A DNA stretch of 64,000 nt from the sequence record OM632671.1; one strand, written 5' to 3'. The translations under genes were made by a program, and so were the position numbers. The notes beneath the pieces are model-generated. The model was not told the DNA's origin, made no database searches, and worked only from the letters and a program-made list of their open reading frames with translations. Positions within the stretch are counted from its first letter, which is position 1. Each line of letters begins with the position of its first letter. This stretch comes from Escherichia phage BEU50. Positions 29,108 through 47,925 of the stretch are shown here, piece by piece.

Positions 29108-29785
29108 ATGAGCACTGATGTTATTATAGATTTTGAAACATTCGGCAATACATCAAAAGCGGCTGTTATTGACCTTGCGGTTATTGCATATAATTCCGAC
29201 CCTGAAGTTGTTGAATCATTTGAAGAACTTGTTCAACGAGGTAAGCGAATTAAATTTAATTTAGCTTCTCAGAAAGGGAAGCGAGTTTTCGCTAAATCCA
29301 CTATGAAATGGTGGAAAGAACAATCGGCTGAAGCGCGTAAAAACTTGGCTCCGTCTGAAGACGATGTCACTACGCTTGAAGGCATTAAAATCTTTTTAGA
29401 CTATTGCCGAGCTAATAAAGTTGACCAATGGAAATCACAGATGTGGTGCCGTGGTATGAGCTTTGACTTCCCGATCTTGGTCGATTTGATTCGTGACCTC
29501 TATCGTGATGAAGGTGTTCTTGAACCAGATATTGATACTGATAAATTAGAACCGGTTAAATTCTGGGCTCAACGCGATATTCGTACGGCAATCGAAGCTT
29601 ACTCTTTGACACGAGGATTAAGTATGTGTCCATTACCGATGGGTACGCTAAAAGGATTCGTTGCCCATGATAGTATTCATGATTGTGCTAAAGATATTTT
29701 GATGTTAAAATATGCTCAGCGTTATGCGCTTGGCCTTGAAGATGTACCTGAGAATCCTGACCCGTTAAGTGTAAAACAGCGATAA
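29108..29785 (+). CDS. dexA: 3'-5' exonuclease DexA
   Basis: DEDD-type N-terminus VIIDFETFG; 225 aa. Confidence 0.8.
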   Translation: MSTDVIIDFETFGNTSKAAVIDLAVIAYNSDPEVVESFEELVQRGKRIKFNLASQKGKRVFAKSTMKWWKEQSAEARKNLAPSEDDVTTLEGIKIFLDYCRANKVDQWKSQMWCRGMSFDFPILVDLIRDLYRDEGVLEPDIDTDKLEPVKFWAQRDIRTAIEAYSLTRGLSMCPLPMGTLKGFVAHDSIHDCAKDILMLKYAQRYALGLEDVPENPDPLSVKQR

Positions 29786-29789
29786 AACA

Positions 29790-29819
29790 GTTTACAACCA
29801 AGGACGGTTGGAGTATAAT
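29790..29819 (+). promoter_or_regulatory. Early promoter (GTTTACA, 18 nt, TATAAT)
   Basis: Upstream of paralogue 1 (29851). Confidence 0.4.
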
Positions 29820-29850
29820 CTTTCTATCTTAACCAAACAGGAAAAACATT

Positions 29851-30345
29851 ATGAATATCAATACTACGGCTACTTACATCCTGAAAGACGAAAAACAAAT
29901 CAACTGGTACGGTGCTTCAGTGAGAGCTTATGAAAAGTTTTGTGAAATTTTAGGTGCCACTCAAGGTAATAGTTTCACTATTGTTAACTTCATCAAACAA
30001 GCTGAAGGCCCTTGGTTATTCTTAGAAATTAAAAATTCATACGGTACAATTTCTACTACCGCCCTTCCAAGCACCGACTTTGAACTGTTGATTGAAGAAG
30101 TAGAACCCGGTAAAGACATCTGTATTGATATGGATATCGCTTGTATGTACGGTACTCTGATTAAGCCTATTGAGCCTACTGATTTGTTGTGTAAAGCTGT
30201 TTCAATTCGACGTCCGTTCGCAGGTCCAGTGAGTGGATGGGTAACTGATCAATGGATTGAAGACGGTGTTGAACTTCTGAACGTTGTTCATGCAGGTGAT
30301 TTTAGTGTAGTTCCACGTAGTGCTGTGGTTAATATCCTTAATTAA
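29851..30345 (+). CDS. Tandem paralogue 1 of a three-gene family (function unknown)
   Basis: Shares C-terminal block ...WV(T/S)DQWIEDGVELLNVVHAGDFSVVP... with the next two ORFs. Confidence 0.45.
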   Translation: MNINTTATYILKDEKQINWYGASVRAYEKFCEILGATQGNSFTIVNFIKQAEGPWLFLEIKNSYGTISTTALPSTDFELLIEEVEPGKDICIDMDIACMYGTLIKPIEPTDLLCKAVSIRRPFAGPVSGWVTDQWIEDGVELLNVVHAGDFSVVPRSAVVNILN

Positions 30346-30347
30346 TG

Positions 30348-30377
30348 TTGTACATCCAAGGATGGATGGAGTATAGT
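30348..30377 (+). promoter_or_regulatory. Early promoter-like element (TTGTACA, 18 nt, TATAGT)
   Basis: Upstream of paralogue 2. Confidence 0.35.
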
Positions 30378-30407
30378 GAATTCAATTTAAACAAAGAGAG
30401 AAAAATT

Positions 30408-30863
30408 ATGATTACTATTGGTGAAATTAAGCGTGTATCGTCTGCATCTCGTTCTAAAGCTGCAGGTCGTCTAGTTGAAGTGGTAGGACTTCGTACTAAT
30501 GGTACTGGTCGTGTTAAAGAAGTTAAAGTTCGAATCATTCCTAGTTCTGGAAAAACTGAAACTCAGTACGCTTACGTAAGTCCTAAATTTTTGGAAACTC
30601 CTGTGAGCGCTCATTTTGCTTCTACTGAACCTAATGCACAGTTCAAATGGGCCCTTTGCAAAGGTGTTGAATTCCAGACGGATAAAGAATTTGACTTCAT
30701 CGATGAATACGGTTATCCAAGCAAAACTGATACTATGTGTGGCTTCATTAGTGACCAATGGGTTGAAGATGGTGAAAAGTTATACAATATCGTATTCTTA
30801 GGTGACTTCCGAGTTGTTAAAGAATCTGAAATCACTCGCTATGTGTCTCCTCGTAAAGCTTAA
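30408..30863 (+). CDS. Tandem paralogue 2 of the three-gene family
   Basis: ISDQWVEDGEKLYNIVFLGDFRVV; ATG at 30408 preceded by AAAGAGAG. Confidence 0.45.
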   Translation: MITIGEIKRVSSASRSKAAGRLVEVVGLRTNGTGRVKEVKVRIIPSSGKTETQYAYVSPKFLETPVSAHFASTEPNAQFKWALCKGVEFQTDKEFDFIDEYGYPSKTDTMCGFISDQWVEDGEKLYNIVFLGDFRVVKESEITRYVSPRKA

Positions 30864-30872
30864 GGAATTATT

Positions 30873-31292
30873 ATGAATATTGTAAATCTCTCTACAGGTG
30901 ATTATGTATATGTATCCGTTGCTTCTCGCTCTAAAGTTGCCGGGAAGTTGGTTGAAGTTCTTTCTGTGAGTGATCCGGTTTTTGGACGTAACGAAGTTAA
31001 AGTTCGTGACGCTGATGGTAACATTGGTTATGTCTCAAGCCAATTCATTGAACCAGAAGAAAAAGCGTTCAAATGGGGACTATGCAGATCAGTTTCTGTT
31101 GAAAAAGACCATGAATTCACTATTGCTGCGGCAACTGATGGAACACCGTGGAAAACTAAGCAAATCGCTGGATTTATTAGCGACCGTTGGGTAGAAGATG
31201 GTGTTAAGCTTTATAACATCGTTTTCGCTGGACAGTTCATGGTAGTTCCTGAATTCCAAATTAAAAAATATAGCCCAGCTGCTTTCGCATAA
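30873..31292 (+). CDS. Tandem paralogue 3 of the three-gene family
   Basis: ISDRWVEDGVKLYNIVFAGQFMVV; N-terminal ...SRSKVAGKLVEV... shared with paralogue 2. Confidence 0.45.
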   Translation: MNIVNLSTGDYVYVSVASRSKVAGKLVEVLSVSDPVFGRNEVKVRDADGNIGYVSSQFIEPEEKAFKWGLCRSVSVEKDHEFTIAAATDGTPWKTKQIAGFISDRWVEDGVKLYNIVFAGQFMVVPEFQIKKYSPAAFA

Positions 31293-31296
31293 AGTT

Positions 31297-31325
31297 GTTT
31301 ACTTCTCCTCTGGTTTTGGTATTAT
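31297..31325 (+). promoter_or_regulatory. Early promoter (GTTTAC, 17 nt, TATTAT)
   Basis: Upstream of the 31352 start. Confidence 0.35.
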
Positions 31326-31351
31326 AACCATATCAACCAGAGGAGAATAAT

Positions 31352-31876
31352 ATGTTAGTTTACCGCGTAGAACGTAGTTTTTGTACTCAACGTGAATCAT
31401 TACCAGGAATTGCTATCGAAGACGGTAAAGCCGTCAGAATTTGGGAAACCTCTTGGAATAAAGAACCTCGCTCACCATACGGTTGGTCGGGCACCGACAA
31501 CTCTGAAGAAACATGGGAGTTCCTTGATAAACATGGAATAATCTCAGGTAATTTCTACCATCACGGCGACAACTATAACGTCCCTAATCGTCCTACAGTA
31601 AATGAAGACAAACTCCTTGAACAAAATATCTTAAGATACTATAGAATTGAGCACACATTTGAATTGAGTGAAGATTGGGCTCAAGGGTTCTATTTTGGAT
31701 TTGAAAGTGTTGACGCGGTTTATGCATGGTTTGATGACCAGGTGGATGTTGAACTCTTGAAAGCTAAAGGATACTACATCGCGGTCTATGAAGCACCTGA
31801 TTTCATCCTCGGAAGTTGTCAATTAATGTTCAGACGTTCATTGGCAGAACAAGTTGATTTTATTTTGCTAAAATGA
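31352..31876 (+). CDS. Hypothetical protein (174 aa)
   Basis: ORF with RBS AGAGGAGAA. Confidence 0.4.
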   Translation: MLVYRVERSFCTQRESLPGIAIEDGKAVRIWETSWNKEPRSPYGWSGTDNSEETWEFLDKHGIISGNFYHHGDNYNVPNRPTVNEDKLLEQNILRYYRIEHTFELSEDWAQGFYFGFESVDAVYAWFDDQVDVELLKAKGYYIAVYEAPDFILGSCQLMFRRSLAEQVDFILLK

Positions 31877-31933
31877 TGTACAACAACTATGGTCTATGAT
31901 ACTATAGACCTATCAAAACAAGAGGAGAATATT

Positions 31934-32161
31934 ATGAAACGTCAAATCATTAAAAACGTAACTACTGATTCAAACATCGATGAGTTTGAAGATGTTCTGT
32001 TTAATCCTGATTTAGTTGTTGTACAGAAAAACTGGACCGAATTTTTATGCTACACTGAAGTGGTTTACGTTTACGAAAAACTCGGCGATGAAATGCCTAT
32101 CTATGGTATCTTCCGTGAAATCACTGAAAACGGTACAACTTATTGGAAGGAAACTTACTAA
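31934..32161 (+). CDS. Hypothetical protein (75 aa)
   Basis: ATG at 31934 preceded by AAGAGGAGAA and a promoter-like element at 31877..31905. Confidence 0.3.
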
Positions 32162-32574
32162 TGGCTAATAAATTCCGCGTTAACTCATGGTACCAATTTA
32201 AAGATAAACGTGCCCAAGAAGAGTTTATTAAAGACCACACTGATAATGGGATTTATGCACGACGTCTTGGCATGGAACCATTTAAAGTATTAGATGTTGA
32301 CCATCTTGGTCGTCCTACTAAAATTGTGACATCTACTGGCATGGTTGGATACGCAACAGGCGGTGATATCCTTGATGAAAACTTTATCTGGCTCTCCACG
32401 AATGAAGCAGAGTTCTTTGACGAAGTTGGAAATCCATATCAAGAGTCTAAAGAGCAAGATTCTGGTGAACTTGACGAATTGTCTGAATTTCCGGTGATGA
32501 CGATTACTATCGAAAATAACGACCAGGCATGGTCTTTGTATCAAATGTTGAAAGCTCACTTTAAGGAACAATAA
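32161..32574 (+). CDS. Hypothetical protein (137 aa)
   Basis: ATG overlapping upstream stop. Confidence 0.35.
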
Positions 32575-32753
32575 TGCCGTTATACGACTATAAATGTCAA
32601 TCTGAAGATTGTGGTCATGAATATGAAAAAATTAAAAGAATTTCTGAACGAGAAAACGATGTTTGCCCTGAATGTCATCGTCTGTCTACTCGTCGGGTTT
32701 CTGCTCCTAAACATGTGAACGGTGGTTTTTACGACTTACTTAAGAAGGGTTAA
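32574..32753 (+). CDS. Small zinc-ribbon protein (59 aa)
   Basis: CQSEDCGH ... CPECH (two CxxC pairs); ATG overlaps upstream stop; below ORF-track cutoff. Confidence 0.35.
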   Translation: MPLYDYKCQSEDCGHEYEKIKRISERENDVCPECHRLSTRRVSAPKHVNGGFYDLLKKG

Positions 32754-32755
32754 TT

Positions 32756-33181
32756 ATGGCTTTTAAAGGTTTTGAAGTTGGTAAGAAATATCGTATTATC
32801 AAAGGACAAGAAGATAATTTCTTGAGAATTCTTAATACGACTGGTAAACGTCTTAATACTAATCTGCATACTACTTTATTGTCCAAAGATTTTATTGTGG
32901 AAGAGATGATTGGTTACGGTGTTTCGATGATTGCTGTAGAAGCCGTAGGCGATTATGGCCGAACTATTCATAGTATGCAAGGTGATATTCTGCTTTATGG
33001 TGCAGAATTTAAATTCTTTGAAGAAGTTCCGGAACCAGATACAGCTGTCGATTTCAAAAAAGGCTCTATAGAATTTGTTGATGGTTCGGTGATCGTATCA
33101 GGCGATGTGGTCATTACAGTTAAAAGTGAACAAGGGCGTTTAGCTGCAATTGATGCACTTCAGAAAATTAAATTTAAATAA
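32756..33181 (+). CDS. Hypothetical protein (141 aa)
   Basis: ORF directly upstream of gene 39; same length as T4 goF, not verified. Confidence 0.35.
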   Translation: MAFKGFEVGKKYRIIKGQEDNFLRILNTTGKRLNTNLHTTLLSKDFIVEEMIGYGVSMIAVEAVGDYGRTIHSMQGDILLYGAEFKFFEEVPEPDTAVDFKKGSIEFVDGSVIVSGDVVITVKSEQGRLAAIDALQKIKFK

Positions 33182-33199
33182 GGGCTTAGGCCCTTTTTG
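33181..33199 (+). terminator. Terminator-like hairpin (AGGGC-UUAG-GCCCU followed by UUUU)
   Basis: Short GC stem plus T run immediately after the 32756..33181 ORF. Confidence 0.4.
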
Positions 33200-33244
33200 C
33201 TTTAGATTTTGGATGATAGAATACCTTCATAACGAGGAGACAAC

Positions 33245-35065
33245 ATGATTAAAAATGAAATTAAGGTATTGTCAGATGTAGAACATATTAAGAAACGTAG
33301 TGGTATGTATATTGGTTCTTCTGCTAAAGAAGCACATGAGCGTTTTTTGTTTGGTAAATATCAACAAGTTGAATATGTTCCTGGTCTGGTTAAATTAATC
33401 GATGAGATTATTGACAACTCGGTTGATGAAGCTATTCGTACATCATTTAAGTTTGCAAATAAAATTGATGTGCAAATTAAAAATAATCAAGTTTCGGTGG
33501 AAGATAACGGACGTGGTATTCCTCAAGGTTTAGTTACCGACCAAACGGGTGAACAAATTCCTGGGCCTGTAGCAGCCTGGACTATTCCAAAGGCTGGTGG
33601 TAACTTTGGTGATGACTCTGAACGCAAGACTGGTGGTATGAACGGTGTAGGGAGTAGTTTAACTAATATCTTCTCTACGTTGTTTACAGGCATCACGTCA
33701 GATGGCGAAAATGAAATCACTGTTAACTGTTCAAACGGAATGGAAAACAAATCATGGTCTTCTAAGAAATCTAAAGGTAAAGGCACTAAAGTAATCTTCA
33801 CTCCTGATTTCTCTTCATTTGAAGAGCATAATTTATCTCAAATTTATTTAGATATTACTTTAGACAGACTTCAAACATTGGCAGTCGTTTATCCTGATAT
33901 CAAGTTCACATTTAATGGTAAAAAGGTTGATGGTAATTTTAAACGATTTGCTAAACAATTTGGTGAAGATAACATCATTCAAGAAAATGATAAAGTCTCT
34001 ATAGCATTCACAACATCACCAGATGGCTTCCGTCATTTAACTTATGTGAATAACATCCATACTAAAAATGGTGGCCATCATGTTGAATGTGTAATGGATG
34101 ATATCTGTGAACATCTTTTGCCGGGTATTAAAAAGAAATATAAGGGTATTGAAGTCACTAAAGCTCGTGTTAAAGAATGCCTCACAATGTTGATGTTTAT
34201 TAGAGACATGAGCAACATGCGTTTTGATTCTCAGACTAAAGAACGTTTAACGTCAACGTATGGTGATATTCGTAATCATATCCAATTAGATGCTAAGAAA
34301 ATTGCTCAGGCACTTCTTAAAAACGAAGCCTTGATTATGCCTATTGTTGAAGCAGCATTAGCTCGTAAATTGGCAGCAGAAAAGGCTGCAGAAACTAAAG
34401 CAGCTAAAAAGGCGACTAAAGCTAAGGTTCATAAGCATATTAAAGCTAACCAATGTGGTAAAGATGCAGATACGACATTGTTTTTAACAGAAGGTGATTC
34501 GGCAATTGGTTATCTCATTGATGTTCGTGACCGTGAACTACACGGCGGATTCCCATTACGTGGTAAGGTGATGAATAGCTGGGGTATGTCATATGCTGAT
34601 ATGATGAAGAACAAAGAGCTCTTTGATATCTGTGCTATCACAGGTCTTATTCTTGGTGAAAAGGCAGAGAATACGAACTATCGTAATATTGCAATTATGA
34701 CCGATGCCGATCATGACGGTCTTGGAAGTATCTATCCAGCTTTGCTTGCTTTCTTTAGTAATTGGCCTGAATTGTTTGAACAAGGACGTATTCGCTTTGT
34801 TAAAACGCCTGTAATTATTGCACAAATTGGCAAAACTCAAAAATGGTTTTATACTGTAGCTGAGTATGAAGAAGCTAAAGATACACTGCCTAAGCATAGT
34901 ATTCGATACATCAAGGGATTGGGCTCACTTCAGCGAGATGAATATAAAGAAATGATTCAAAACCCTGTGTACGACGTAGTTAAACTTCCTGAAAATTGGA
35001 AAGAACTATTTGAAATGCTCATGGGTAACGACCCTGAACTCCGTAAAGATTGGATGCTAGGATAA
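33245..35065 (+). CDS. 39: DNA topoisomerase II ATPase subunit, fused gp60+gp39 form (606 aa)
   Basis: GyrB-like GHKL ATPase N-terminus (LVKLIDEIIDNSVDEA), TOPRIM (LTEGDSA ... DADHDG); continuous ORF of the length of the fused 60+39 form. Confidence 0.9.
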   Translation: MIKNEIKVLSDVEHIKKRSGMYIGSSAKEAHERFLFGKYQQVEYVPGLVKLIDEIIDNSVDEAIRTSFKFANKIDVQIKNNQVSVEDNGRGIPQGLVTDQTGEQIPGPVAAWTIPKAGGNFGDDSERKTGGMNGVGSSLTNIFSTLFTGITSDGENEITVNCSNGMENKSWSSKKSKGKGTKVIFTPDFSSFEEHNLSQIYLDITLDRLQTLAVVYPDIKFTFNGKKVDGNFKRFAKQFGEDNIIQENDKVSIAFTTSPDGFRHLTYVNNIHTKNGGHHVECVMDDICEHLLPGIKKKYKGIEVTKARVKECLTMLMFIRDMSNMRFDSQTKERLTSTYGDIRNHIQLDAKKIAQALLKNEALIMPIVEAALARKLAAEKAAETKAAKKATKAKVHKHIKANQCGKDADTTLFLTEGDSAIGYLIDVRDRELHGGFPLRGKVMNSWGMSYADMMKNKELFDICAITGLILGEKAENTNYRNIAIMTDADHDGLGSIYPALLAFFSNWPELFEQGRIRFVKTPVIIAQIGKTQKWFYTVAEYEEAKDTLPKHSIRYIKGLGSLQRDEYKEMIQNPVYDVVKLPENWKELFEMLMGNDPELRKDWMLG

Positions 35066-35862
35066 TGAATTATCGTAAAATTTATGATAAACTTATCGCT
35101 GCGGCTAAAAACCGCAGCATTATTCCTAATTATACTGAGACACATCATATATTGCCAAAATCTATGGGTGGGAGTAATGATAAATCAAATCTAGTTAAAA
35201 TGACCCCTAGAGAGCATTTTATCGCCCATTTATTGCTTTATAAAATTCATAAGAACCGTTCTATGCTTATGGCTATTAGAGCTTTTTACATGGGAGCTAG
35301 AAATTCTAGAGATTATGATTGGCTTAAACAAGAATTCTCTAAAGAGCACTCTAGATTTATGAAAGAATGGATTGCTAAAAACGGCAACCCATTTAAAGGT
35401 AAAAAACATACTAAAGCAACAAGAGAATTAATGTCACATATTGCTTCACAACGTATAGGCGAATTAAATCCATTTTATGGTAAAACTCATACGCAAGAAG
35501 CAATAGATAAAATAATACAGGCCAACAAGTTATCTTGGGAGAATGGGCGAAAAGCACCTGTAAAAACAAAAGAACACCAGGATAAAATAACTAAATCAAG
35601 AATGGAAACATTTAAAACAAAAGGATTTAAACCATACACTCCTAGGTCGGAAGAAACTAAAGCTAAGACTAGAGAGTTGTATAAATCTAAATATGAAAGA
35701 AGGCCTATAAGAATCACAAGTGTAAAAACAGGTGAAACTATTGATTTTAACTATCTTTATGAATTAAGAGAGTATTTAGATATAGGGTCTTCTAATATAT
35801 TGAAAGCATTAAATAATCCTAACAGAACCTGCAAAGGTTATAAAATGTGTTGGATGTCCTAA
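35065..35862 (+). CDS. HNH homing endonuclease (MobA-like position)
   Basis: ETHHILPKSMGGSNDKSNLVKMTPREHFIAH; N-terminus MNYRKIYDKL parallels the other two HNH paralogues; ATG overlaps gene 39 stop. Confidence 0.7.
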   Translation: MNYRKIYDKLIAAAKNRSIIPNYTETHHILPKSMGGSNDKSNLVKMTPREHFIAHLLLYKIHKNRSMLMAIRAFYMGARNSRDYDWLKQEFSKEHSRFMKEWIAKNGNPFKGKKHTKATRELMSHIASQRIGELNPFYGKTHTQEAIDKIIQANKLSWENGRKAPVKTKEHQDKITKSRMETFKTKGFKPYTPRSEETKAKTRELYKSKYERRPIRITSVKTGETIDFNYLYELREYLDIGSSNILKALNNPNRTCKGYKMCWMS

Positions 35863-35885
35863 GCTCCTTCGGGAGCTTCATTTTA
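35861..35885 (+). terminator. Terminator-like hairpin (AAGCUCC-UUCG-GGAGCUU)
   Basis: 7-bp stem with UUCG loop immediately after the HNH gene; weak U tract. Confidence 0.4.
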
Positions 35886-35904
35886 ATTTTAATAAGGCTT
35901 AATT

Positions 35905-37005
35905 ATGAAAGTTATGTTTATCCCATCTCGTGCAGTCCCATTTAATCCTGACCGTGTACAAGGTGGTCTTGAAGCGGTTCATTTGAACGTGTTGAAATAT
36001 TTAGTTTCTATCGGTGCCGATATTGATTATATCGGCTTTGATAATGACACGTTTGGTGACTGGAAAGTTACACACCATCCTGTTGGTCATCTGACTAAAT
36101 TCAGTCTAGGTATGAGTTATACTATGGCTCGTAAGATTGTTGAACTAGCCGGCATCCATGAATACGATTTTGTTGTTACTATGGAACCGACTAAACTAAC
36201 CGTTCAGGCAATTAAAGACGCAGGTCTCTCTAAAGTTCATAAGAATTTTATGGCAACACCATTTGAACCAGTATCTCGTGGCATTGTTCAAATTTGGGAC
36301 CAGACTATTCAAATTCATAAGAATGGCGGTAAGAGTTATGCTCCTACTAAAGCCTTCCGTGAATTTGAACGCAAATATTGTTATATGACTTCAGGTCTGA
36401 CTGACAAAATCGATTATGATTATTGGCGAGCAAATCCGTTGTTTGAAGCCGAAGATTATCCGGTTATTTGTTTGACTGAAAAGCCAGAAGTTCTCCCGGC
36501 AACTGATTTGATTATTAGTGCTCAACGTTATGACACTAAGATGCGTCGCACTGATGTTGCTCTTGAAGCAATTAAAGCACTAGGCGAAAATGGTGTAGGA
36601 TACTGTCCTAGTAAATGGGCACCACCAGCTAAATATCCTGTTATTATTGATGCTCCACACAGTGAAATCATGGAACGTCTTAAAACAGCTAAAGCACTTA
36701 TTAATACGTGTCCTGACACAGGTACGGTAGAGAATAGTTCTATTGAAGCCATCTCTAAAGGTGTCCCTGTAATCCAGTTAGTTTTTAAGGATTATCCTCA
36801 TGCGACATTTGAATACGACCCAGATACTGTGCGTGTAGAAATTGATTCCTCTACTCCTAAGAAAGAAGTAGTTGCGCTTTACACAAAAGCTGTATTAGAA
36901 TTCACTGACACATACGAAGCTCGAGTTAAACGTGCTGAAGCAGTATGGAAGAAGTATAATCGAGATGCAGTTGTTGCGATGTGGGATAAAATCTTCACAG
37001 CGTAA
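35905..37005 (+). CDS. GT-B fold glycosyltransferase (candidate DNA hydroxymethylcytosine sugar transferase)
   Basis: C-terminal GT-B/GT4-like motif TGTVENSSIEAISKGVPVIQ (compare EGFG..LEAMA.G.PVI); located between topoisomerase and rIIA. Confidence 0.6.
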   Translation: MKVMFIPSRAVPFNPDRVQGGLEAVHLNVLKYLVSIGADIDYIGFDNDTFGDWKVTHHPVGHLTKFSLGMSYTMARKIVELAGIHEYDFVVTMEPTKLTVQAIKDAGLSKVHKNFMATPFEPVSRGIVQIWDQTIQIHKNGGKSYAPTKAFREFERKYCYMTSGLTDKIDYDYWRANPLFEAEDYPVICLTEKPEVLPATDLIISAQRYDTKMRRTDVALEAIKALGENGVGYCPSKWAPPAKYPVIIDAPHSEIMERLKTAKALINTCPDTGTVENSSIEAISKGVPVIQLVFKDYPHATFEYDPDTVRVEIDSSTPKKEVVALYTKAVLEFTDTYEARVKRAEAVWKKYNRDAVVAMWDKIFTA

Positions 37006-37020
37006 ATCCTGAATAGCCTG

Positions 37021-37071
37021 AGGCACTATTACACATAAGATGATAGATTATATGGTCTTTAGTAATAGTGC
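37021..37071. repeat. Inverted repeat GGCACTATTAC / GTAATAGTGCC separated by 29 nt
   Basis: 11-bp perfect inverted repeat in the intergenic region after the glycosyltransferase gene. Confidence 0.5.
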
Positions 37072-37097
37072 CCTAGGAATCTACTGAAGAGAATATT

Positions 37098-37298
37098 ATG
37101 AGAACATATAACGTGGACTTGGAACTTTTTGATAAAGCAGTGCTCCGGGAATTCCGGCTTATCCAAAGATTTTTTGATATCGAATCAGCAGAGTCCTTTA
37201 AAGAACGCTTTAAAGAAATTCGATATAAAATACAAACCGATACAGCTACTAAAGAAGAACTTCTTGAAGTAGCAGAAATTTTTAAACGTAACTTGTGA
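37098..37298 (+). CDS. Small protein (66 aa) at the rIIA.1 position
   Basis: ORF with RBS GAAGAGAA. Confidence 0.3.
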   Translation: MRTYNVDLELFDKAVLREFRLIQRFFDIESAESFKERFKEIRYKIQTDTATKEELLEVAEIFKRNL

Positions 37299-37310
37299 TG
37301 AGAGAAAAAC

Positions 37311-39368
37311 ATGATTATCGAAACGGCTAAAGAAACGATTATTGGTTCTGGTGGTAAGAGCACAGCATTCACTATTCAAGGCAATAGCAAAGTTTATAAG
37401 ATTTTGTCTAATGACCTTTATACAAACAAAGAATTGGCTTGTGTACGTGAATTAATCACAAACTGTATCGATGGACAAATTCTTAATGGTTGCACTGATA
37501 AGTTTATTGTTCAGGCTCCAGGTCGTTTAGACCCACGTTTTGTAGTTCGAGACTTTGGTCCTGGTATGAGTGATTTCACCATTCGAGGTAATGACGAAGA
37601 GCCAGGAATCTATAACTCATATTTTGCTTCAACTAAAACATCGAGTAATGATTTCATTGGTGGATTCGGACTCGGCTCTAAAGCTCCATTAGCATATACT
37701 GATACGTTTAACATTACTTCTTATCATAATGGTGAAGTTCGTGGTTATGTAATTTATCAAGATGACAGTGGTCCACAAATTAAGCCAACCTTTGTAGATA
37801 AGATGGGCCCTGATGACCGTACGGGTGTAGAAGTAGTTGTGCCTGTTAACCCGGAAGATTTTGAAAAGTTCGCATCTGAAATTGCGTATGTTATGCGTCC
37901 TCTCGGCGATATTGCAGAAGTTCGTGGTGTTAAAGATATCAAATACTTCCCGGAATTCGATGATGTTTATTTAGCCAAGGAAGCTCCATGGGGTGAACGT
38001 GGTAATATCATGGCTGTTTATGGTGGTATTGTATATCCAATCGGAAGTGTTATTAAAGAACAAACATGGATGATGACGCGATGCACTACAGCTTATATCA
38101 AATTCCCTATGGGTGAACTAGATGTAGCCCCGTCTCGTGAAGCATTGTCATTTGATAAACGTACAGTAGCAAATATTCATAAACGTGTTGCAGAAATTGA
38201 TGCAAAATTATTTGCTGAAGATTCTAAGAAATGGATTGATTGTGAATATCCACGTCATGTATTCCGTGAAATCGATTCTCTTGGTTACTCTGCTCGTAAA
38301 TACATGGAAAAAGCCGGTTCTAATATTGAATCACTGAAATATTCTAAAGAACAACTAACTTATTCTGAGTTGTACAAACGTTTTAAAATGGGACCTGAAT
38401 GGTGCAACCTTGGCGTTGTATATGATATCGTTTCAGATCCACGACTTCGTCGTATTCGTGAAAGCGGAAGCTCGTCTGCAACTATTTCAATTAATAGCCT
38501 GCTAGGTATTAGTCGTAAGCATATTGATATTGTTATTGACGATGTGAAAGGCCGCGTACCAATGATGCGTGCTCTGAACGATGCTTTGACTTCCACCGAT
38601 GCATCAACACTCGTTGATAAGGTTCCTTCCGGACGGGGTAGTAGCGTATTATTCATTAACCCGGAAGATGAAGTTGCAATGAAACTTCTGGAACGATTAA
38701 AGGTTATTTTCGCTGGTGATAGCCTTAAATTTTATAAGACCTCTGAAATTCTTGCATTAGTTAAACCATGGATTGAAGTTAAAGAACGTTCATCGCAGCC
38801 TCGTCCTAAATCCCCAAGTGCTCATCGGTTCTTTAAGAATGAAAACGATGTTTGGGTATCAGAAGATCTCTTTATTCCGGCCGGTAAAGCTGATGAGATT
38901 CAAGGTTATGTTGTAATTCGTAATCGTTCTAACGCTGAATGTCTTGACGCAGATAAAGGTTGGTTGAACTATGATTCTAATTTCTTGACTCGTATTGCTG
39001 ATTTGTCAGGTATTAAAGAGTTCACTGTAGTCCGTCCACAGATTGCTAAGAAAGTTCGTAAACTTGGTGAAGTAGAATGCTTGTTCGAAAAATCAATTAA
39101 TGACTATATTACGCTAATTGATAAAGTGGATTATGATGAGTATGTATCACCAAGTCGTAGAGCACAGCCTTATTTGAATCATATTACTCGTAACGAAGAG
39201 CTTAACTTCCTTAGTAAGTATTTTAGCTCTAAGAACAAAGAAATCAGTAAAGACTTTGCAAAACTCTCAACAGTAAATAATCGCTGGGGATGGAATCGAT
39301 TCGCAGGTGCTGATAACAGAGACCTGAACAGGAAGTTAGAATTGTGCTTAAAGAGGACTCTTTTGTAG
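37311..39368 (+). CDS. rIIA: rIIA-like protein (GHKL ATPase fold), possibly C-terminally truncated at a breakpoint
   Basis: N-terminal MIIETAKET...[15 protein letters not shown] (GHKL motif I-like), GGFGLGSK (G-loop); 685 aa versus about 725 aa recalled for T4 rIIA; no rIIB follows. Confidence 0.55.
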
Positions 39369-39619
39369 ACCCAGAAATTTTCTACGGTTTGCGTGCCCGT
39401 GAAATTGAAATTGAGCCACAACCTACAGTTAAAATTGAAGGTGGTCAACACCTGAACGTTAACGTTCTGCGTCGTGAAACTCTGGAAGATGCAGTTAAGC
39501 ATCCGGAAAAATATCCGCAATTGACTATCCGTGTATCCGGTTATGCAGTTCGCTTTAACTCTCTGACTCCGGAACAGCAGCGCGACGTTATCGCTCGTAC
39601 CTTTACCGAGAGTTTGTAA
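39344..39619 (+). CDS. GrcA/YfiD-like autonomous glycyl-radical domain (3' portion of gene; N-terminal part not present upstream)
   Basis: C-terminal about 60 aa ...[60 protein letters not shown] is near-identical to E. coli GrcA as I recall it, including the glycyl-radical motif RVSGYAV; host-like GC-rich codons. Confidence 0.6.
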
Positions 39620-39840
39620 TGGCAAAGATAATTATTGAAGGTTCTGAAGATGTGCTAAATGCTTTCGCCGAGTGGTTTAGTAATTCAGGTGAACAACAAT
39701 TTAATGAAGCGTGGAATATGGGTGATATTGATGGAATTTATCCTACGACAGAAATTTCTGTTCAGGGATATGGCATTCATGAACCTATTCGTTTAGTTGA
39801 ATACGATTTATGTACTGGCGAGGAAGTCAAATATGATTGA
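39619..39840 (+). CDS. Hypothetical protein (73 aa)
   Basis: ATG overlapping upstream stop. Confidence 0.3.
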   Translation: MAKIIIEGSEDVLNAFAEWFSNSGEQQFNEAWNMGDIDGIYPTTEISVQGYGIHEPIRLVEYDLCTGEEVKYD

Positions 39841-40099
39841 AGATATTAAGGGTTATAAACCACATACCGACGAAAAAATCGGTAAAGTAAATGCTATTAA
39901 AGACGCTGAAGTTCGTTTAGGACTTATCTTTGATGCTTTATACGATGAATTTTGGGAAGCATTTGATAGCTGTGAAGATGATGAACTCGCGAAGAATTAC
40001 GCCGAAAGCCTCGATCAGTTAACTATTGCTAAAACGAAACTCAAAGAAGCAAGTATGTGGGCTTGCCGTGCTGTGTTCCAACCAGAGGAAAAATACTAA
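39833..40099 (+). CDS. Hypothetical protein (88 aa)
   Basis: ATGA start/stop overlap with previous ORF. Confidence 0.3.
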
Positions 40100-40377
40100 T
40101 GGCTCAATTAAGCGCAGGGTTTGGTTATGAGTATTATACTGCCCCTCGTCGTGTATCTGTTGCTCCTAAGAAAATTCAAAGTCTTGATGATTTCCAGGAA
40201 GTAGTCCGTAACGCTTTCCAGGACTATGCACGCTATCTTAAAGAAGATTCACAGGACTGTCTCGAAGAAGATGAAATTGCTTACTATACGCAGCGTCTTG
40301 AACAGCTCAAAAATCTACATGAGGTTCGTGCCGAAGTTTCAAAGTCTATGAATAAATTGATTAGATTTAAAGAATAA
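40099..40377 (+). CDS. Hypothetical protein (92 aa)
   Basis: ATG overlapping upstream stop. Confidence 0.3.
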
Positions 40378-40379
40378 CT

Positions 40380-40409
40380 GTTTACTTTTCCTCTTGACTG
40401 TGGTATAAT
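40380..40409 (+). promoter_or_regulatory. Early promoter (GTTTAC, 18 nt, TATAAT)
   Basis: Upstream of regB. Confidence 0.4.
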
Positions 40410-40436
40410 TTTTCTATCAGTTAAGAGGAGAATAAC

Positions 40437-40898
40437 ATGACTATCAACACAGAAGTTTTTATCCGTCGAAATAAGCTTCGTCGTCACTTTGAGTCGGAGT
40501 TTCGTCAAATTAACAATGAGATTCGTGAGGCATCAAAAGCAGCAGGGGTCTCATCGTTTCATCTAAAATATTCTCAGCATCTTCTTGATCGTGCAATTCA
40601 ACGGGAGATTGATGAGACATATGTTTTTGAATTATTCCACAAAATAAAAGACCATGTTTTAGAAGTTAATGAATTCCTGAGTATGCCTCCGCGTCCTGAC
40701 ATTGATGAGGATTTTATTGATGGGGTTGAATACCGTCCTGGACGTTTAGAAATCACAGATGGAAATCTTTGGCTTGGATTTACAGTTTGTAAACCTAATG
40801 CGAAGTTCAAAGACCCGTCGCTTCAATGCAGGATGGCAATTATCAATAGTCGTCGTTTACCAGGAAAGGCTTCTAAAGCAGTAATTAAAACTCAATGA
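40437..40898 (+). CDS. regB: Endoribonuclease RegB-like (153 aa)
   Basis: Length and sequence fit T4 RegB as I recall it; position upstream of tk. Confidence 0.6.
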   Translation: MTINTEVFIRRNKLRRHFESEFRQINNEIREASKAAGVSSFHLKYSQHLLDRAIQREIDETYVFELFHKIKDHVLEVNEFLSMPPRPDIDEDFIDGVEYRPGRLEITDGNLWLGFTVCKPNAKFKDPSLQCRMAIINSRRLPGKASKAVIKTQ

Positions 40899-40905
40899 GG
40901 TAAGC

Positions 40906-41451
40906 ATGAGAAAAGCACTACTCGCTGGTCTATTGGCCATTTCAATGATGGCACATAGCTCCGAGCATACTTTCAGTAATGTCCAACTCGATAACATGCG
41001 TTACGCGTATCAATTCGGGGAACAATTTTCTAAGGATGGAAAATATAAAACACACAAAAACATCCACAAGAGCGGATTGGGTCATATAATGGCTGCTATT
41101 TTGTGGCAAGAAAGCTCTGCCGGAGTTAATTTAAAATCTAAACCAAAGCATCACGCCTACGGAATGTTCCAAAATTATTTGCCTACTATGCGAGCGAGAG
41201 TTAAGGAACTTGGTTATAATATGACCGATGCTGAAATAAAAAGAATGTTGAATAAACGATCCAATTCAGCTTCCTGGGCGTACATTGAACTTTCTTATTG
41301 GTTAAATATACATAAGGGCGATATAAGAAAAGCAATATCCTCTTATAATTCGGGATGGAATGTTAAAGCAGGTTCTAAATATGCTTCTGAAGTCCTAGAA
41401 AAGGCTAATTACCTTAAAAATAATAAACTTTTGGAAATAGTAAATGACTAA
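40906..41451 (+). CDS. Secreted lytic transglycosylase-like protein (SLT-like motifs)
   Basis: Signal peptide MRKALLAGLLAISMMAHS; ILWQESSAG ... AYGMFQ ... SYNSGW resemble SLT family E-S / GLMQ / AYNAG motifs. Confidence 0.45.
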   Translation: MRKALLAGLLAISMMAHSSEHTFSNVQLDNMRYAYQFGEQFSKDGKYKTHKNIHKSGLGHIMAAILWQESSAGVNLKSKPKHHAYGMFQNYLPTMRARVKELGYNMTDAEIKRMLNKRSNSASWAYIELSYWLNIHKGDIRKAISSYNSGWNVKAGSKYASEVLEKANYLKNNKLLEIVND

Positions 41452-41785
41452 AATTTTGGTTTTATGTATAGGATTAATTTCATTTTCTGCGTTAGCAGAT
41501 ACATCATATACTGAAATTAGAGAGTATGTAAACCGTACTGCAGCGGATTATTGCGGGAAAAATAAAGCATGCCAAGCTGAATTTGCGCAGAAATTAATAT
41601 ATGCATATAAAGACGGAGAAAGAGATAAATCAAGCAGATACAAAAATGATACATTGTTAAAACGATATGCTAAAAAGTGGAATACCTTAGAATGTTCAGT
41701 TGCGGAGGAGAAAGATAAAGCCGCTTGTCATTCAATGGTTGACCGTTTAGTAGATTCTTATAATCGAGGATTGAGTACTAGATGA
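41444..41785 (+). CDS. Secreted small protein with four Cys (113 aa)
   Basis: Signal peptide MTKILVLCIGLISFSALA. Confidence 0.35.
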   Translation: MTKILVLCIGLISFSALADTSYTEIREYVNRTAADYCGKNKACQAEFAQKLIYAYKDGERDKSSRYKNDTLLKRYAKKWNTLECSVAEEKDKAACHSMVDRLVDSYNRGLSTR

Positions 41786-42261
41786 TTGTAAAATATATCA
41801 AGGGCGATATTGTCGCCCTATTTCTTCAAGGTAATATTATTGCGCACGGGTGCAATTGCTTCCACACAATGGGCTCTGGCGTAGCAGGTCAATTAGCAAG
41901 AGCCTATCCCAAAATTTTAGAAATAGATAAAACCACTACCGAGTACGGTTCTCGTGATAAATTAGGCGATATGTCTATTGTTTTTAAACATAGTCCTACG
42001 GGATTTGGTATATGCTATAACCTGTATACACAATACGAACCGGGTCCTAATCTTGATTATGGTGCTTTAGTAAACTGCATGATAGAATTAAATCTACAGG
42101 CAGAAACCCTTTTGTTTAAACCAGTAATTTACATTCCACGCATAGGTTGCGGTATTGCTGGTGGTGATTGGGATAAGGTTTCTAAATTAATCGACATGTT
42201 TACTCCTGATATTGATTTAATAGTGGTGGATTATGAAAGTACATTACCCGCATCCGTTTGA
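41782..42261 (+). CDS. Macro-domain-like protein (ADP-ribose binding/processing)
   Basis: GDIVALFLQGNIIAHGCNCFHTMGSGVAGQLARAYP resembles the macro-domain N-terminal signature (GDIT...VNAAN..L.GGGV.GAI); later PRIGCGIAGGDWDKV. Confidence 0.5.
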   Translation: MIVKYIKGDIVALFLQGNIIAHGCNCFHTMGSGVAGQLARAYPKILEIDKTTTEYGSRDKLGDMSIVFKHSPTGFGICYNLYTQYEPGPNLDYGALVNCMIELNLQAETLLFKPVIYIPRIGCGIAGGDWDKVSKLIDMFTPDIDLIVVDYESTLPASV

Positions 42262-43009
42262 TCCTAAAAACAAAGTGGAAATTATTCGTCAATGGGAACG
42301 CATTTGCCGTACTAAATGCCCAATTAATAGTCCACATGATGTAGATAAAGACTATATTGGAACATTCGTTGAATATACCTTTATTGATAGGAAAGGTCGT
42401 AAACAACATGTAGAAGAATATTGTTTAAAGGTTACATGGTTATGAGCCAAACTAGTATTCTTAAAAATGCCCATTGTGAAAAGTGTAAGTGGCCGATTGT
42501 TTTTGCTTTATGTAATGATGAAATGGCTTGTGATTTCGATTATTGGTGCTATTGTTCTAATAAAGGATGCATCAATCATAAAGGTGAAGGATTTTATTCA
42601 GGATTTTATCCTTATCCTGATTTCGTTAAAGAAGGTAAACCGAAATGAATAGTTTTGAGTTACAATATGAAGTGTTACGTGAGCTTGATAATTTAATTGA
42701 ACTCGCTGTCAATAAAGGTTTTGCCATTGGAATCGGTCAAAAAGATACTGGTCATTTAACTATGGAAATATTTAAGCAAAAGCGAATTATTTTAAAACTC
42801 CTGGAAATTAATATATGAGTCTGAGTAAAGAATAAAAAGATAAATTGTTTGAGCTTATCCATGAACTTCTAGATGAGCATGCAGAAGCAAACACCTTTTA
42901 TGATGAATACGGCCCGCTATCTCCCGAACAGCAAGAAGAATTTGCTGATCGGTTTGATAAGAAAGAAAACGAATTAATAGCTTATGTGAATATGCTTTAA
43001 GAAGGTGAT

Positions 43010-43591
43010 ATGGCGAGTTTAATTTTTACTTACGCAGCAATGAATGCTGGAAAATCTGCTTCTCTTTTGACTGCTGCACATAATTATAAAGAACGCGGAA
43101 TGAGTGTATTAGTTCTTAAGCCTGCTATTGATACTCGCGATTCTGTCTGTGAAGTCGTTTCTCGCATTGGAATTAAGCAGGAAGCGAATATTATTACAGA
43201 TGATATGGATATTTTCGAGTTCTATAAATGGGCTGAAGCACAAAAAGATATTCATTGCGTATTTGTAGATGAAGCTCAGTTTTTAAAAACTGAACAGGTG
43301 CATCAATTAAGTCGAATTGTTGATACATATAATGTTCCTGTTATGGCTTATGGATTAAGGACTGATTTCGCTGGAAAATTGTTTGAAGGTTCTAAAGAAC
43401 TTTTAGCGATTGCAGATAAACTTATTGAACTAAAGGCAGTTTGTCATTGCGGCAAAAAAGCGATTATGACAGCTCGATTAATGGAAGATGGAACACCAGT
43501 TAAAGAAGGTAATCAAATCTGTATTGGTGATGAAATTTATGTTTCTTTGTGTAGAAAACATTGGAACGAATTAACTAAAAAGCTCGGTTAG
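43010..43591 (+). CDS. tk: Thymidine kinase
   Basis: Walker A AAMNAGKSASLL, DEAQF, C-terminal zinc-binding CHCG...C..H; 193 aa. Confidence 0.9.
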   Translation: MASLIFTYAAMNAGKSASLLTAAHNYKERGMSVLVLKPAIDTRDSVCEVVSRIGIKQEANIITDDMDIFEFYKWAEAQKDIHCVFVDEAQFLKTEQVHQLSRIVDTYNVPVMAYGLRTDFAGKLFEGSKELLAIADKLIELKAVCHCGKKAIMTARLMEDGTPVKEGNQICIGDEIYVSLCRKHWNELTKKLG

Positions 43592-43600
43592 TGCAAAAGT

Positions 43601-43608
43601 TATAAATA
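43601..43608 (+). promoter_or_regulatory. Late promoter TATAAATA
   Basis: Exact octamer 26 nt upstream of the 43634 ATG. Confidence 0.4.
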
Positions 43609-43633
43609 GGTTTATCTAACTAAAGGGGTATAT

Positions 43634-43846
43634 ATGCTACAATTAACTGAAAAGCAACTTCGCAATCTTACTGTTCTTCAATTAGATGAAATTCGTAGGG
43701 AAGTTGGAAATATCATTTCAGCTTTGCGTCGAGAAGTATCACTCAACCAATCTCCGGCAGACTATACTAGATTGCGAAATTTTGAAAAATACCTTGATAA
43801 AGTTAAGGCCGTGCATCGGCATAAAGTAAATACAGGACAAAAATGA
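43634..43846 (+). CDS. Hypothetical protein (70 aa)
   Basis: ORF with RBS AAAGGGG. Confidence 0.3.
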
Positions 43847-43858
43847 TAGGAGGCCTTT

Positions 43859-44152
43859 ATGGCCTTAAAAGCAACGGCACTATTTGCCATGCTAGGATTA
43901 GCGTTTGCTTTATCTCCATCGATTGAAGCGAATGTCGATCCTCATTTTGATAAATTTATGGAATCTGGTATTAGACACGTTTATATGCTTTTTGAAAATA
44001 AAAGCGTAGAATCATCTGAACAGTTCTATAGTTTTATGCGAACGACTTATAAAAATGACCCGTGCTCTTCTGATTTTGAATGTATAGAGCGAGGCGCGGA
44101 GATGGCACAATCATACGCTAGAATTATGAACATTAAATTGGAGACTGAATGA
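43859..44152 (+). CDS. Secreted hypothetical protein (97 aa)
   Basis: Signal peptide MALKATALFAMLGLAFALSPSIEA. Confidence 0.35.
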   Translation: MALKATALFAMLGLAFALSPSIEANVDPHFDKFMESGIRHVYMLFENKSVESSEQFYSFMRTTYKNDPCSSDFECIERGAEMAQSYARIMNIKLETE

Positions 44153-44535
44153 AATTCAGCGACTTTTCACAAAGTGGAAAACCTTCAAAGGCAGATGAAT
44201 ACTTAGGTTTATTAATGGCTGCACAAGCTTATTTTCATTCTGCGCATTTTGAAACTAAAAGTTATGCTAGACACAAAGCATACGATTTTATTTTCTCCGA
44301 GTTGCCAGATTTGATTGATAAATTTGGTGAGCAATATTTGGGGTATTCTGGTAGAAAATACACACCTTCAATTCCAGATGCTAGTAAACTTCCTACCGAC
44401 ACAATTAAAATGATTGATCGCATACTAGACCAATCTAACAGCATTTATAAAGAAATGCCTCCAGCCATTCAAAGCACGATAGATGATATCACTGGGATGT
44501 TTTATCAGAGTAAATATCTTCTTTCCCTCGAATAA
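44149..44535 (+). CDS. Hypothetical protein (128 aa)
   Basis: ORF with ATGA overlap. Confidence 0.35.
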
Positions 44536-44539
44536 CGTT

Positions 44540-44563
44540 AGTCTCCTTCGGGAGACTTTTTTC
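44540..44563 (+). terminator. Intrinsic terminator (AGUCUCC-UUCG-GGAGACU followed by U6)
   Basis: 7-bp stem, UUCG loop, T6. Confidence 0.7.
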
Positions 44564-44572
44564 ATTTTACCG

Positions 44573-44602
44573 GTTTACTTTCCATTTGAGCTGTGATACT
44601 AT
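44573..44602 (+). promoter_or_regulatory. Early promoter (GTTTAC, 18 nt, TACTAT)
   Basis: Immediately after the terminator, upstream of the 44631 ATG. Confidence 0.4.
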
Positions 44603-44630
44603 ACAACCATCGGATAAAGAGGAGAACATC

Positions 44631-44819
44631 ATGAAAATTGAAGCACTTAATCAAGAAGGAAATATCTACGTCATCATTAATGGTGATTTTTTCGTCGACA
44701 TGGATGAAGTTACCAGTGAAGAACTTGTAGAACTTCTTAAGAAACGTTATAATATGTGTGATGAAGTTGCAACTCACATGGCGTGTGCAATATTCTCTCT
44801 TTCATATGTGGTGGAATAA
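44631..44819 (+). CDS. Hypothetical protein (62 aa)
   Basis: ATG preceded by AAGAGGAGAA. Confidence 0.3.
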
Positions 44820-45022
44820 TGAAAACTGAAAAGCAAGCGGATAAAATTAAGGAATTAGTGGCTTCAATTCGTAAAGCAGATGAAGAGCTGATTGACTTTG
44901 CTTGGTATTCATCGGGTATTTCGAATAAAGGCATTAAAGACTTTGAAACTAAAGTTGATAATGCTTTAGAAGCGTTAGATATGTTTCTTGATGAAATTAT
45001 CGATCATAATACGAGAGTTTAA
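44819..45022 (+). CDS. Hypothetical protein (67 aa), starts MKTEKQ within a 26-nt repeat
   Basis: ATG embedded in GGTGGAATAATGAAAACTGAAAAGCA. Confidence 0.3.
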   Translation: MKTEKQADKIKELVASIRKADEELIDFAWYSSGISNKGIKDFETKVDNALEALDMFLDEIIDHNTRV

Positions 45023-45024
45023 GT

Positions 45025-45219
45025 ATGCTAACACGTGAACAGTTTGAAAAAATCATTAAATTAGCACGTGATGTTGAAATAGATTCATATCAATTAGCAG
45101 TTGAGCATTGTGAAGGATATTCATACGATGGTATAGAATCAGCTAAAAGGGATTTGGATAAATCTAAAGCTAAGTTAGTCCAATATCTTGAAATGATTAG
45201 GTGGAATAATGAAAACTGA
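45025..45219 (+). CDS. Hypothetical protein (64 aa)
   Basis: ORF following 44819..45022. Confidence 0.3.
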   Translation: MLTREQFEKIIKLARDVEIDSYQLAVEHCEGYSYDGIESAKRDLDKSKAKLVQYLEMIRWNNEN

Positions 45220-45382
45220 AAAGCAGATGTTTTTAATGAAACTAATTGAAGAATATGCTAATGCAGTTTCTGACTATGAGCGTTCTTCTCGGGAAAGAGG
45301 TACAGCTTTCGCCAAAGAAGAAATGAAAATCATGGTTGATGCTCACACAAAGCTTCAGAATTTTATTGAAAACAACATTTAA
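45209..45382 (+). CDS. Hypothetical protein (57 aa), starts MKTEKQ within the second copy of the 26-nt repeat
   Basis: ATG embedded in second copy of GGTGGAATAATGAAAACTGAAAAGCA. Confidence 0.3.
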   Translation: MKTEKQMFLMKLIEEYANAVSDYERSSRERGTAFAKEEMKIMVDAHTKLQNFIENNI

Positions 45383-45870
45383 CGGTTTACAAGTTGGCAA
45401 GGTTATGGTATAGTAATCTTGTCAACTGTCAAGGAGAAGAGAATGAAAGTTTTGTTTGTTGTGTATGTAATGATTCAATATAATTACCCAATGTTTACTT
45501 ATAATCTGGTGAACAACATTATTGATATTATTCAAAGGAGTATGTAATTGTGAGTGAGTCGAAGAGAATCAATATGAAACGATTAGTATTAGAAGTTAGT
45601 CCGCTTTTTGGTGAATTGGCTATAGAAAAAGTAAATAACATGTATCGTTTGACGCAAGAAGACGATATGCTATATTTTACGCCTAGTGAAATCATTCATT
45701 TAACCCAAATTGAATATCCTTATACTGATAAAATAGTAAGTATCAATGATGAGCACAAAATTCATTGCTCGTTTGATTGAAGTTGAAGCCCAAATTGCAG
45801 AACACACCAAATTGTTAAAAGCTCTTAATGCAAAAGCAAATGGTTTACGTAATGCTATTGAGGTATTGAA

Positions 45871-46185
45871 ATGAAAAAGCGTCTATTAGAAGACATTGCA
45901 GCTTCAAGTAATTCCAGTTTAATTAAAATTATTATGGCCGGTGAAGAAGACGATCTGGAAATGCGTGGAAAGATTTATGGTTGTGATGATTATAGCAGCC
46001 CTATTAATTGGGATTCTGTAATGGTCATGGTTGAACGTCGCGAAAGGGCTTCTAAAAACGTTCCTAATTGCCCTGAATGTGGAACTGAACAGGTGCAATT
46101 AGTCCATTGGCAGACTAATAATCTTCGTTATAAATGTCGCCATTGTAAACACCGATTTGACCGAGAAGAAAATGACAAAGCGTAA
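45871..46185 (+). CDS. Small zinc-ribbon protein (104 aa)
   Basis: CPECG ... CRHCKH. Confidence 0.35.
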
Positions 46186-46415
46186 AGAATATATGGAGAC
46201 CGCCGAAAAGGCAGTCCGTGAATTAGCAATAGCTTATTATAATGAACACGGTAAATTTCCTGATAGATACAGCGTGCTTAAATCTGCTTTAACTCGTTCA
46301 TATAAAAATATGCTATCAGAAGTAAGTGATATTATATACAAACATAAAGAACAAACGGGCCAAAGTCTTGATTACGACGAGACTTTTAAACAAGTACTAG
46401 GAATTAAGGAATAAT

Positions 46416-46679
46416 ATGTTTAAAGTATATGGTTATGATAGCAACATCCATAAATGTGTGTATTGCGATAATGCAAAACGTCTTTTGACCGTGAAGAAAC
46501 AGCCGTTTGAATTTATCAACATTATGCCGGAAAAAGGTGTTTTTGATGATGAGAAAATCGCTGAGCTTCTGACTAAACTAGGTCGTGATACTCAAATCGG
46601 CTTAACAATGCCTCAGGTATTTGCTCCTGATGGAAGTCATATTGGTGGATTTGACCAATTGCGGGAATACTTTAAATGA
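46416..46679 (+). CDS. nrdC: Glutaredoxin/thioredoxin NrdC
   Basis: 87 aa; active-site CVYC; matches T4 NrdC from memory. Confidence 0.8.
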   Translation: MFKVYGYDSNIHKCVYCDNAKRLLTVKKQPFEFINIMPEKGVFDDEKIAELLTKLGRDTQIGLTMPQVFAPDGSHIGGFDQLREYFK

Positions 46680-47168
46680 TTCTCGAAGGAACTGATTATA
46701 TCCATGATTACCGCGGAAGCGCGGTATATGTAGGTGATGAAGTTGCAGTTTACTACGGGTATGGAACTTTGATGACAGCCAAGGTTATTCAAATTAAAAA
46801 TAATCGTGCTAAACTCGAAGTTTATTATTCTAACGGCGAAAAGTCTATTTCTAAGTGGAAATACGGCGATTGTATGGTCAAACTGGGGTAAATATGATTT
46901 ACGATATTAGTGCAGCAAGAGCTCCATCAATGGTTGCTATTCCAGCTGAAGAATTAGATCGTCTTCATAAAATTGAAGAACTTCTGTGGGAAATTGAATC
47001 TGATTTGCCATCAGGATTAGAATCCTGGATTGATTATGAAGAACTTAATAAGCTTCGGGGTTAAACCCTGGTGGGCGGCTAGATGGGAAACTGTAGAGCC
47101 AGAGCCGGAAGAACCGGTTTACACTGATGAAGAAACAGTATATAATGAACCAACGATAAATGACTTAA

Positions 47169-47672: not shown

Positions 47673-47925
47673 AAAAACTCAAAATTCTTTTTCTGACAAG
47701 GCATTTTAATGAAAACCGAATTGGTTTATACTGAAAAGTTAAATGGCGGTAAGGTTTGGAAACTTTTTATTAAAGGACATTCTACGGACCCTCATATGAC
47801 CACTTGCGTAGGAACCTATTCTCGTCCTACTAAAAAGATGATTCGACAGTATAAACGATTGCATCGAATGTTTTACAATACTTAAATAATAAATACCCTT
47901 ATCTATTTAAGGTAAGGGTTTTATT

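Follow-up and report, generated by a model that had tools for sequence, protein, structure and literature searches.

The rII region of native Mosigvirus genomes, as found in RB69, phiE142, and a20, runs from gene 39 through an HNH endonuclease gene (where one is present), an ORF003c homologue, and rIIA.1 to rIIA, which encodes 737 aa and is followed within ~10 nt by rIIB (311 to 315 aa). In T4, classical rII deletions such as r1589 fuse rIIA to rIIB, and illegitimate recombination usually occurs at short direct repeats. Genes 37, 59, and 32 are essential or important in T4 genetics. The T4 gene vs.6, also named Y06I, is the phage homologue of GrcA/YfiD from E. coli. T-even phages recombine through homology and keep their gene order, as confirmed by bred T4-type mosaics, which are homologous and collinear (PMC8614997).

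We analyzed a stretch of 64,000 nt, referred to here in its entirety as the window. The native Mosigvirus order is kept in the window at 96 to 98% identity as far as position 39347, within rIIA, where T4-type DNA takes the place of the last 58 rIIA codons and of rIIB.

Results

The rIIA ORF of the window (positions 37311 to 39368, plus strand) encodes 685 aa and is, as a first-pass annotation of the sequence had noted, shorter than the T4 protein (725 aa); RB69 rIIA is longer still (737 aa, 2,214 nt). Collinearity with the reference covers 679 native codons, to position 39347, and does not continue to the stop codon of a full-length rIIA. Past that position, the rIIA frame picks up six foreign codons (LKRTLL) from DNA of the vs.6 side before it meets a stop. 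When the window was aligned to RB69 and to the T4-type phage e11/2, RB69 identity extended to 39346. The RB69 identity of rIIA ends abruptly at 39346/39347, which corresponds to RB69 record position 179/178, and base 39347 is a C, the phiE142 allele. At junction 1 (39347/39348), RB69-type rIIA (record position 178) bluntly abuts T4-type vs.6 (T4 position 63828) with 0 nt of microhomology; on the common T-even map, ~105 kb separates the two genes. A search of the rest of the 64,000-nt window for the final 58 rIIA codons and for rIIB found neither, which bears out the earlier remark that rIIB is missing; no rIIB stands directly after rIIA on the same strand. The Mosigvirus-type sequence ends 177/178 nt from the rIIA stop codon, where RB69-type records conventionally begin, and therefore fits a record or contig end. 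A break at most 178 nt from a record start would have a chance of roughly 0.2% per junction if breaks were random, which hints at such an end.

The sequence that follows (39348 to 39619, plus strand) is the 3' 272 nt of vs.6, a GrcA-like gene for an autonomous glycyl radical cofactor, without its first 91 nt and start region. The match begins 91 nt (30 codons) into the 363-nt gene, is collinear with T4 63828 to 63557, and is identical from 39348 onward to vs.6 of T4-type phages. The remnant lies in a different frame from the rIIA ORF. Its Gly_radical domain (Pfam PF01228) was recognized with an E value of 1.5e-18 over profile positions 66 to 106 of 106, in agreement with the earlier description of a partial GrcA-like gene lacking a start. 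The complete 120-codon vs.6 ORF with its own start is not present at this site, and the GTG at 39344, which spans junction 1, is a start codon only by chance. Downstream, vs.5, vs.4, vs.3, and regB follow in the same order as in T4. The first 91 nt of vs.6, its ribosome-binding region, and the upstream genes vs.7 and vs.8, all present in T4, are missing from the window. The vs.4 homologue (39797 to 40099), just downstream of junction 1, matches the Pfam Acb2/Tad1 hairpin family of anti-CBASS sponges (E = 1.4e-19).

The sequence after rIIA had also been described as GC richer. The rise exists but is modest (44.5% G+C in the vs.6 remnant versus about 37 to 39% on either side), and it fails as a signal of the breakpoint. 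It is intrinsic to vs.6, because positions 39435 to 39619 (185 nt, 47% G+C) share 96% DNA identity with grcA in 5,426 of 5,426 complete E. coli genomes. We therefore rejected the GC rise as a boundary of foreign DNA: it falls on the 3' part of vs.6 that matches grcA, a part that T4-type and RB69-type genomes both contain, and vs.6 with this annotation was found in T4, e11/2, and RB69. The 3' 185 nt of vs.6 has the look of a gene segment that T-even phages took from a host.

Comparison of the whole window with T-even genomes resolved it into five blocks. Block A (1 to 39347, plus strand) is of Mosigvirus (RB69-like) type and extends from gene 46 through genes 43, 41, and 39 and rIIA.1 to rIIA, collinear with RB69 from 37688 to 178. 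Its collinear pieces are 96.5 to 98.4% identical to RB69 by local BLAST and 68 to 78% identical to T4. The Mosigvirus phage a20 matches positions 1 to 25000 at 99.1% and 27000 to 39347 at 98.4%, each in one piece. Relative to RB69, block A holds an insertion at 871 to 1678, with a 238-aa minus-strand ORF of no clear family, and another at 10336 to 11057, with a 253-aa ORF containing I-TevI-type DNA-binding and NUMOD motifs. Both insertions are natural, because a20 and NRG-P0074 match across them in one piece. A free-standing HNH/NUMOD3 homing endonuclease ORF (35050 to 35862, 270 aa), whose TTG start overlaps the end of gene 39, separates that gene from the ORF003c homologue. This ORF is absent from RB69 and present in phiE142 and in Logan contig L011, and a20 matches the stretch in one piece. 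The next ORF (35905 to 37005, 366 aa) has no Pfam hit, and its protein is 100% conserved in at least 10 public contigs. In phage AlbertHofmann, the region matching this ORF carries the annotation "putative hmC-arabinosyltransferase," which fits the Mosigvirus type of DNA modification.

From 39348 on, the window is 91 to 98% identical to Tequatrovirus phages and 71 to 78% identical to RB69. Judged by these identities, junction 1 is a switch of genus, with Mosigvirus on its left and Tequatrovirus on its right. This change of genus and three further breakpoints go beyond what the first-pass annotation had reported. The regB-tk-nrdC-49-nrdD block that it had placed after the GrcA-like gene is present as described, and it contains one of these breakpoints, at 45766, and ends with nrdD cut at 50206. 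Block B1 (39348 to 45766, plus strand; T4 63828 to 57624) comprises the vs.6 remnant, vs.5, vs.4/Acb2, vs.3, regB, vs.1, vs, tk.4 through tk, rI.1, rI, rI.-1, mobD.x, and the 5' part of mobD.1, and is 98.5% identical to SHFML-26 in one piece. Block B2 (45767 to 50206, plus strand; T4 49040 to 44354) comprises a partial nrdC.3, nrdC.2, nrdC.1, nrdC, 49.x, pin, and 49, then an ORF for an HNH/NUMOD3 endonuclease and the 5' portion of an nrdD that has no intron. The NUMOD3 endonuclease ORF (48396 to 49217, 273 aa) lies between gene 49 and nrdD. The lack of an intron in nrdD (49208 to 50206) is relative to T4, whose positions 45850 and 44814 meet at 49743/49746 of the window.

Block C (50207 to 57726; T4 156675 to 149138) carries the first ~135 nt of gene 37 followed by genes 36, 35, and 34 on the minus strand, and rnh, dsbA, gene 33, and the first 59 nt of gene 59 on the plus strand. 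Its ends are 99.5 to 100% identical to T6, PST, and PV654517. Block D (57727 to 64000, plus strand; T4 143081 to 136676) comprises a partial nrdA.2, nrdA.1, nrdA, nrdB with an intron HNH ORF, denA, and the start of rnlA. Single records match blocks C and D in two to three pieces, split at the boundary between them. Within block D, nrdB appears to be interrupted (60444 to 62073): a 229-aa ORF forms exon 1 and is followed by a full-length ORF (269 aa) for an HNH_3 endonuclease. This is probably the intact form of the I-TevIII-type intron ORF that is truncated in T4. All five blocks are oriented alike on the common T-even map, on which B1 and B2 (gap of 8.6 kb) and C and D (gap of 6 kb) are near neighbors. 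No gene is duplicated between the RB69-like and T4-like parts of the window, so redundancy cannot serve as proof of two genomes.

The three joins downstream of junction 1 all fall within 18 kb of it. Junction 2 (45766/45767) fuses mobD.1, of which the 5' part remains, to nrdC.3, of which the 3' part remains, and skips ~8.6 kb of the T4 map. Junction 3 (50206/50207; T4 44354/156675) connects nrdD, in mid-gene, to antisense codon 45 of tail fiber gene 37, all but 45 codons of which are missing. Junction 4 (57726/57727; T4 149138/143081) breaks gene 59 at codon 19 and continues midway through nrdA.2, and the skipped segment holds most of 59, segG, 32, frd.x, frd, and td. At all four junctions, microhomology amounts to 0 to 1 nt and homology to each parent ends at the same base. 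None of the four (0 of 4) has the short direct repeat or microhomology typical of illegitimate recombination, and 14-mers from the 150 nt around each junction were never found again near other block ends. Eight gene ends (rIIA, vs.6, mobD.1, nrdC.3, nrdD, 37, 59, and nrdA.2) are cut in mid-ORF and out of frame, and the missing halves of these genes were not found elsewhere in the window. Neither Ns nor a linker occurs at the joins, and inspection by eye saw no restriction site common to the four junction sequences. Inside its ends, every piece is natural, with intact ORFs in each block. Recombination mediated by repeats and the collapse of repeats in a de Bruijn graph were both ruled out as sources of the junctions by the 0 to 1 nt shared and the absence of recurring 14-mers. 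Wrap-around of a circularly permuted record was likewise rejected: rIIB would be expected after rIIA, and the flanks of the join differ in genus.

Queries of 1.2 to 1.4 kb centered on each junction were searched against a phage collection of 50,697 records. Junction 1 was spanned by none of 742 matching records, junction 2 by none of 509, junction 3 by none of 870, and junction 4 by none of 517. In interior controls from block A, for which spanning meant coverage of at least 80% of the query, 144 records spanned the query from 1 to 25000 and 141 spanned the query from 27000 to 39347. Block B1 was spanned by 487 records, and block B2 was spanned by 36. By exact match, a 30-mer across 39347/39348 was absent from IMG/VR, GTDB genomes (one per species), and JGI metagenome contigs. 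Strain-specific 40- to 45-mers taken from either side of this junction likewise had no match in IMG/VR. The chimeric 685-aa product had no exact match on record among 153 billion gene positions.

Public relatives of the region left of junction 1 were identified by a protein identical to the 366-aa upstream neighbor. These contigs are 93 to 98% identical to the window, and their homology to it ends at 39346 except for a few bases of chance extension. In 10 of 10 such contigs, as in phiE142, rIIA encodes 737 aa. In all 8 of the 8 that extend far enough, rIIB comes next, and phiE142 has the same order. The rIIA-vs.6 adjacency of the window was present in none of these related genomes.

Discussion

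The four junctions very probably mark an in silico composite of Mosigvirus and Tequatrovirus sequences, made either by concatenation of contigs or records or by chimeric assembly. The interiors of the blocks are natural and widely matched, and the junctions occur in no independent sequence among those searched. One of the two options raised in the first-pass annotation, a composite of nonadjacent regions, is upheld by the presence of two genera, by the blunt joins, and by the failure of any of 50,697 records to span any of the four junctions. The window is almost certainly artifactual as judged from the sequence, which is likewise the basis for assuming a software or curation step that produced it. 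In such a step, a Mosigvirus contig or record ending 177 nt before the rIIA stop codon would have been joined to a Tequatrovirus fragment starting 91 nt into vs.6, and three more T4-like fragments, of 4.4 to 7.5 kb, would have been placed end to end to make up the rest of the window. The likely cause would be a sample or data set that contained both phages and whose contigs or records were concatenated, possibly after ordering and orientation against a reference; a chimeric assembly could have had the same result. The shared orientation and the near-neighbor pairs are unlike a random concatenation, and some ordering step must therefore be assumed. This suggests reference-guided scaffolding of contigs or the dropping of uncovered stretches. 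As a counterpoint, the same two features could reflect one molecule with deletions.

The second option of the first-pass annotation, a large rearrangement of the genome, fared less well. With genes 37 and 59 cut and with 32, frd, and td left out, it is very unlikely that a genome rearranged in this way would be viable. We regard as extremely unlikely the related proposal that illegitimate recombination during coinfection by a Mosigvirus and a Tequatrovirus gave rise to a replicating intergeneric hybrid with the missing genes elsewhere in its genome. It would be in keeping with the avid recombination of T-even phages, for which bred T4-type mosaics are documented (PMC8614997), and with the lack of gene redundancy between the parental parts of the window. 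However, the documented T-even mosaics are products of homologous exchange and are collinear, as are the 36 to 487 records that match the block interiors. A natural mosaic would switch within homology, keep the gene order, and leave essential genes intact, whereas here the switch joins rIIA to a gene ~105 kb away, tail fiber gene 37 is cut at codon 45, helicase-loader gene 59 is cut at codon 19, and single-stranded-DNA-binding gene 32 lies in a skipped segment. The cut genes would stay broken even if their other halves lay elsewhere. Moreover, the joins have no short direct repeats, and no public sequence shares them.

Fragments from a mixed lysate of the two genera could also have been joined physically, by nonhomologous end joining or ligation, into a defective molecule that was then sequenced faithfully, for example, as a ligation chimera of library preparation, as a concatenate that had been cloned, or as DNA packaged aberrantly in a coinfection. 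Blunt joins without microhomology are what in vitro ligation of sheared fragments yields, and both parents are phages of E. coli that often occur together, according to the host lists of the matching records. Ligation would nevertheless produce random order and orientation, whereas the window has five blocks in one orientation with two pairs of map neighbors. To place four joins within 18 kb, ligation would have had to occur many times in a single molecule, and a consensus assembly would not normally retain such a molecule. We consider this physical origin quite unlikely. The arbitrary mid-gene cuts, the absence of a linker, and the otherwise natural pieces with intact ORFs would suit a test sequence that was deliberately built or shuffled by pasting together parts of real phage genomes. 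Shared orientation and near-neighbor pairs would be odd choices in designing a shuffle, and we give this origin hardly any credence. Its sequence would be inseparable from that of concatenated contigs, both being in silico composites, and it is covered by the composite that we favor.

On that favored reading, the main value of the analysis is quality control. The rIIA-vs.6 junction is almost certainly not a biological feature of any phage chromosome. Annotation, gene order, or recombination inferred across 39347, 45766, 50206, or 57726 would be wrong. The artifacts include the 685-aa "short rIIA," a 91-aa "GrcA-like" ORF, and the rIIA-vs.6 and nrdD-37 adjacencies. The window would have a different meaning in the highly improbable event that it is a true piece of a replicating hybrid, with a Mosigvirus replication module fused nonhomologously to scrambled Tequatrovirus segments. 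T-even genomes could then survive large noncollinear rearrangements and intergeneric exchange, and the joins, if real, would upend the strong collinearity that T-even genomes show; this analysis found no support for the joins being real.

Among known systems, T4 rII deletions resemble the window in that a truncated rIIA gives way to foreign sequence at a sharply defined breakpoint. However, those deletions are intragenomic, remove at most a few kilobases of nonessential DNA, and usually involve short repeats. In the window, by comparison, the partner comes from another genus and from ~105 kb away on the map, and microhomology is absent. Public phage assemblies that are chimeric or concatenated show blunt joins of unrelated or nonadjacent segments, cut ORFs, and junctions confined to a single record, as the window does. 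The window differs from them in having no contig-boundary marker such as Ns and in the common orientation of its blocks, which implies an ordering step. Other T4-type records of odd length may be comparable, among them phiE142 (121 kb, placed in its own genus, Carettavirus), phiC120 (187 kb), and the "Pseudomonas phage" PV654520 (142 kb).
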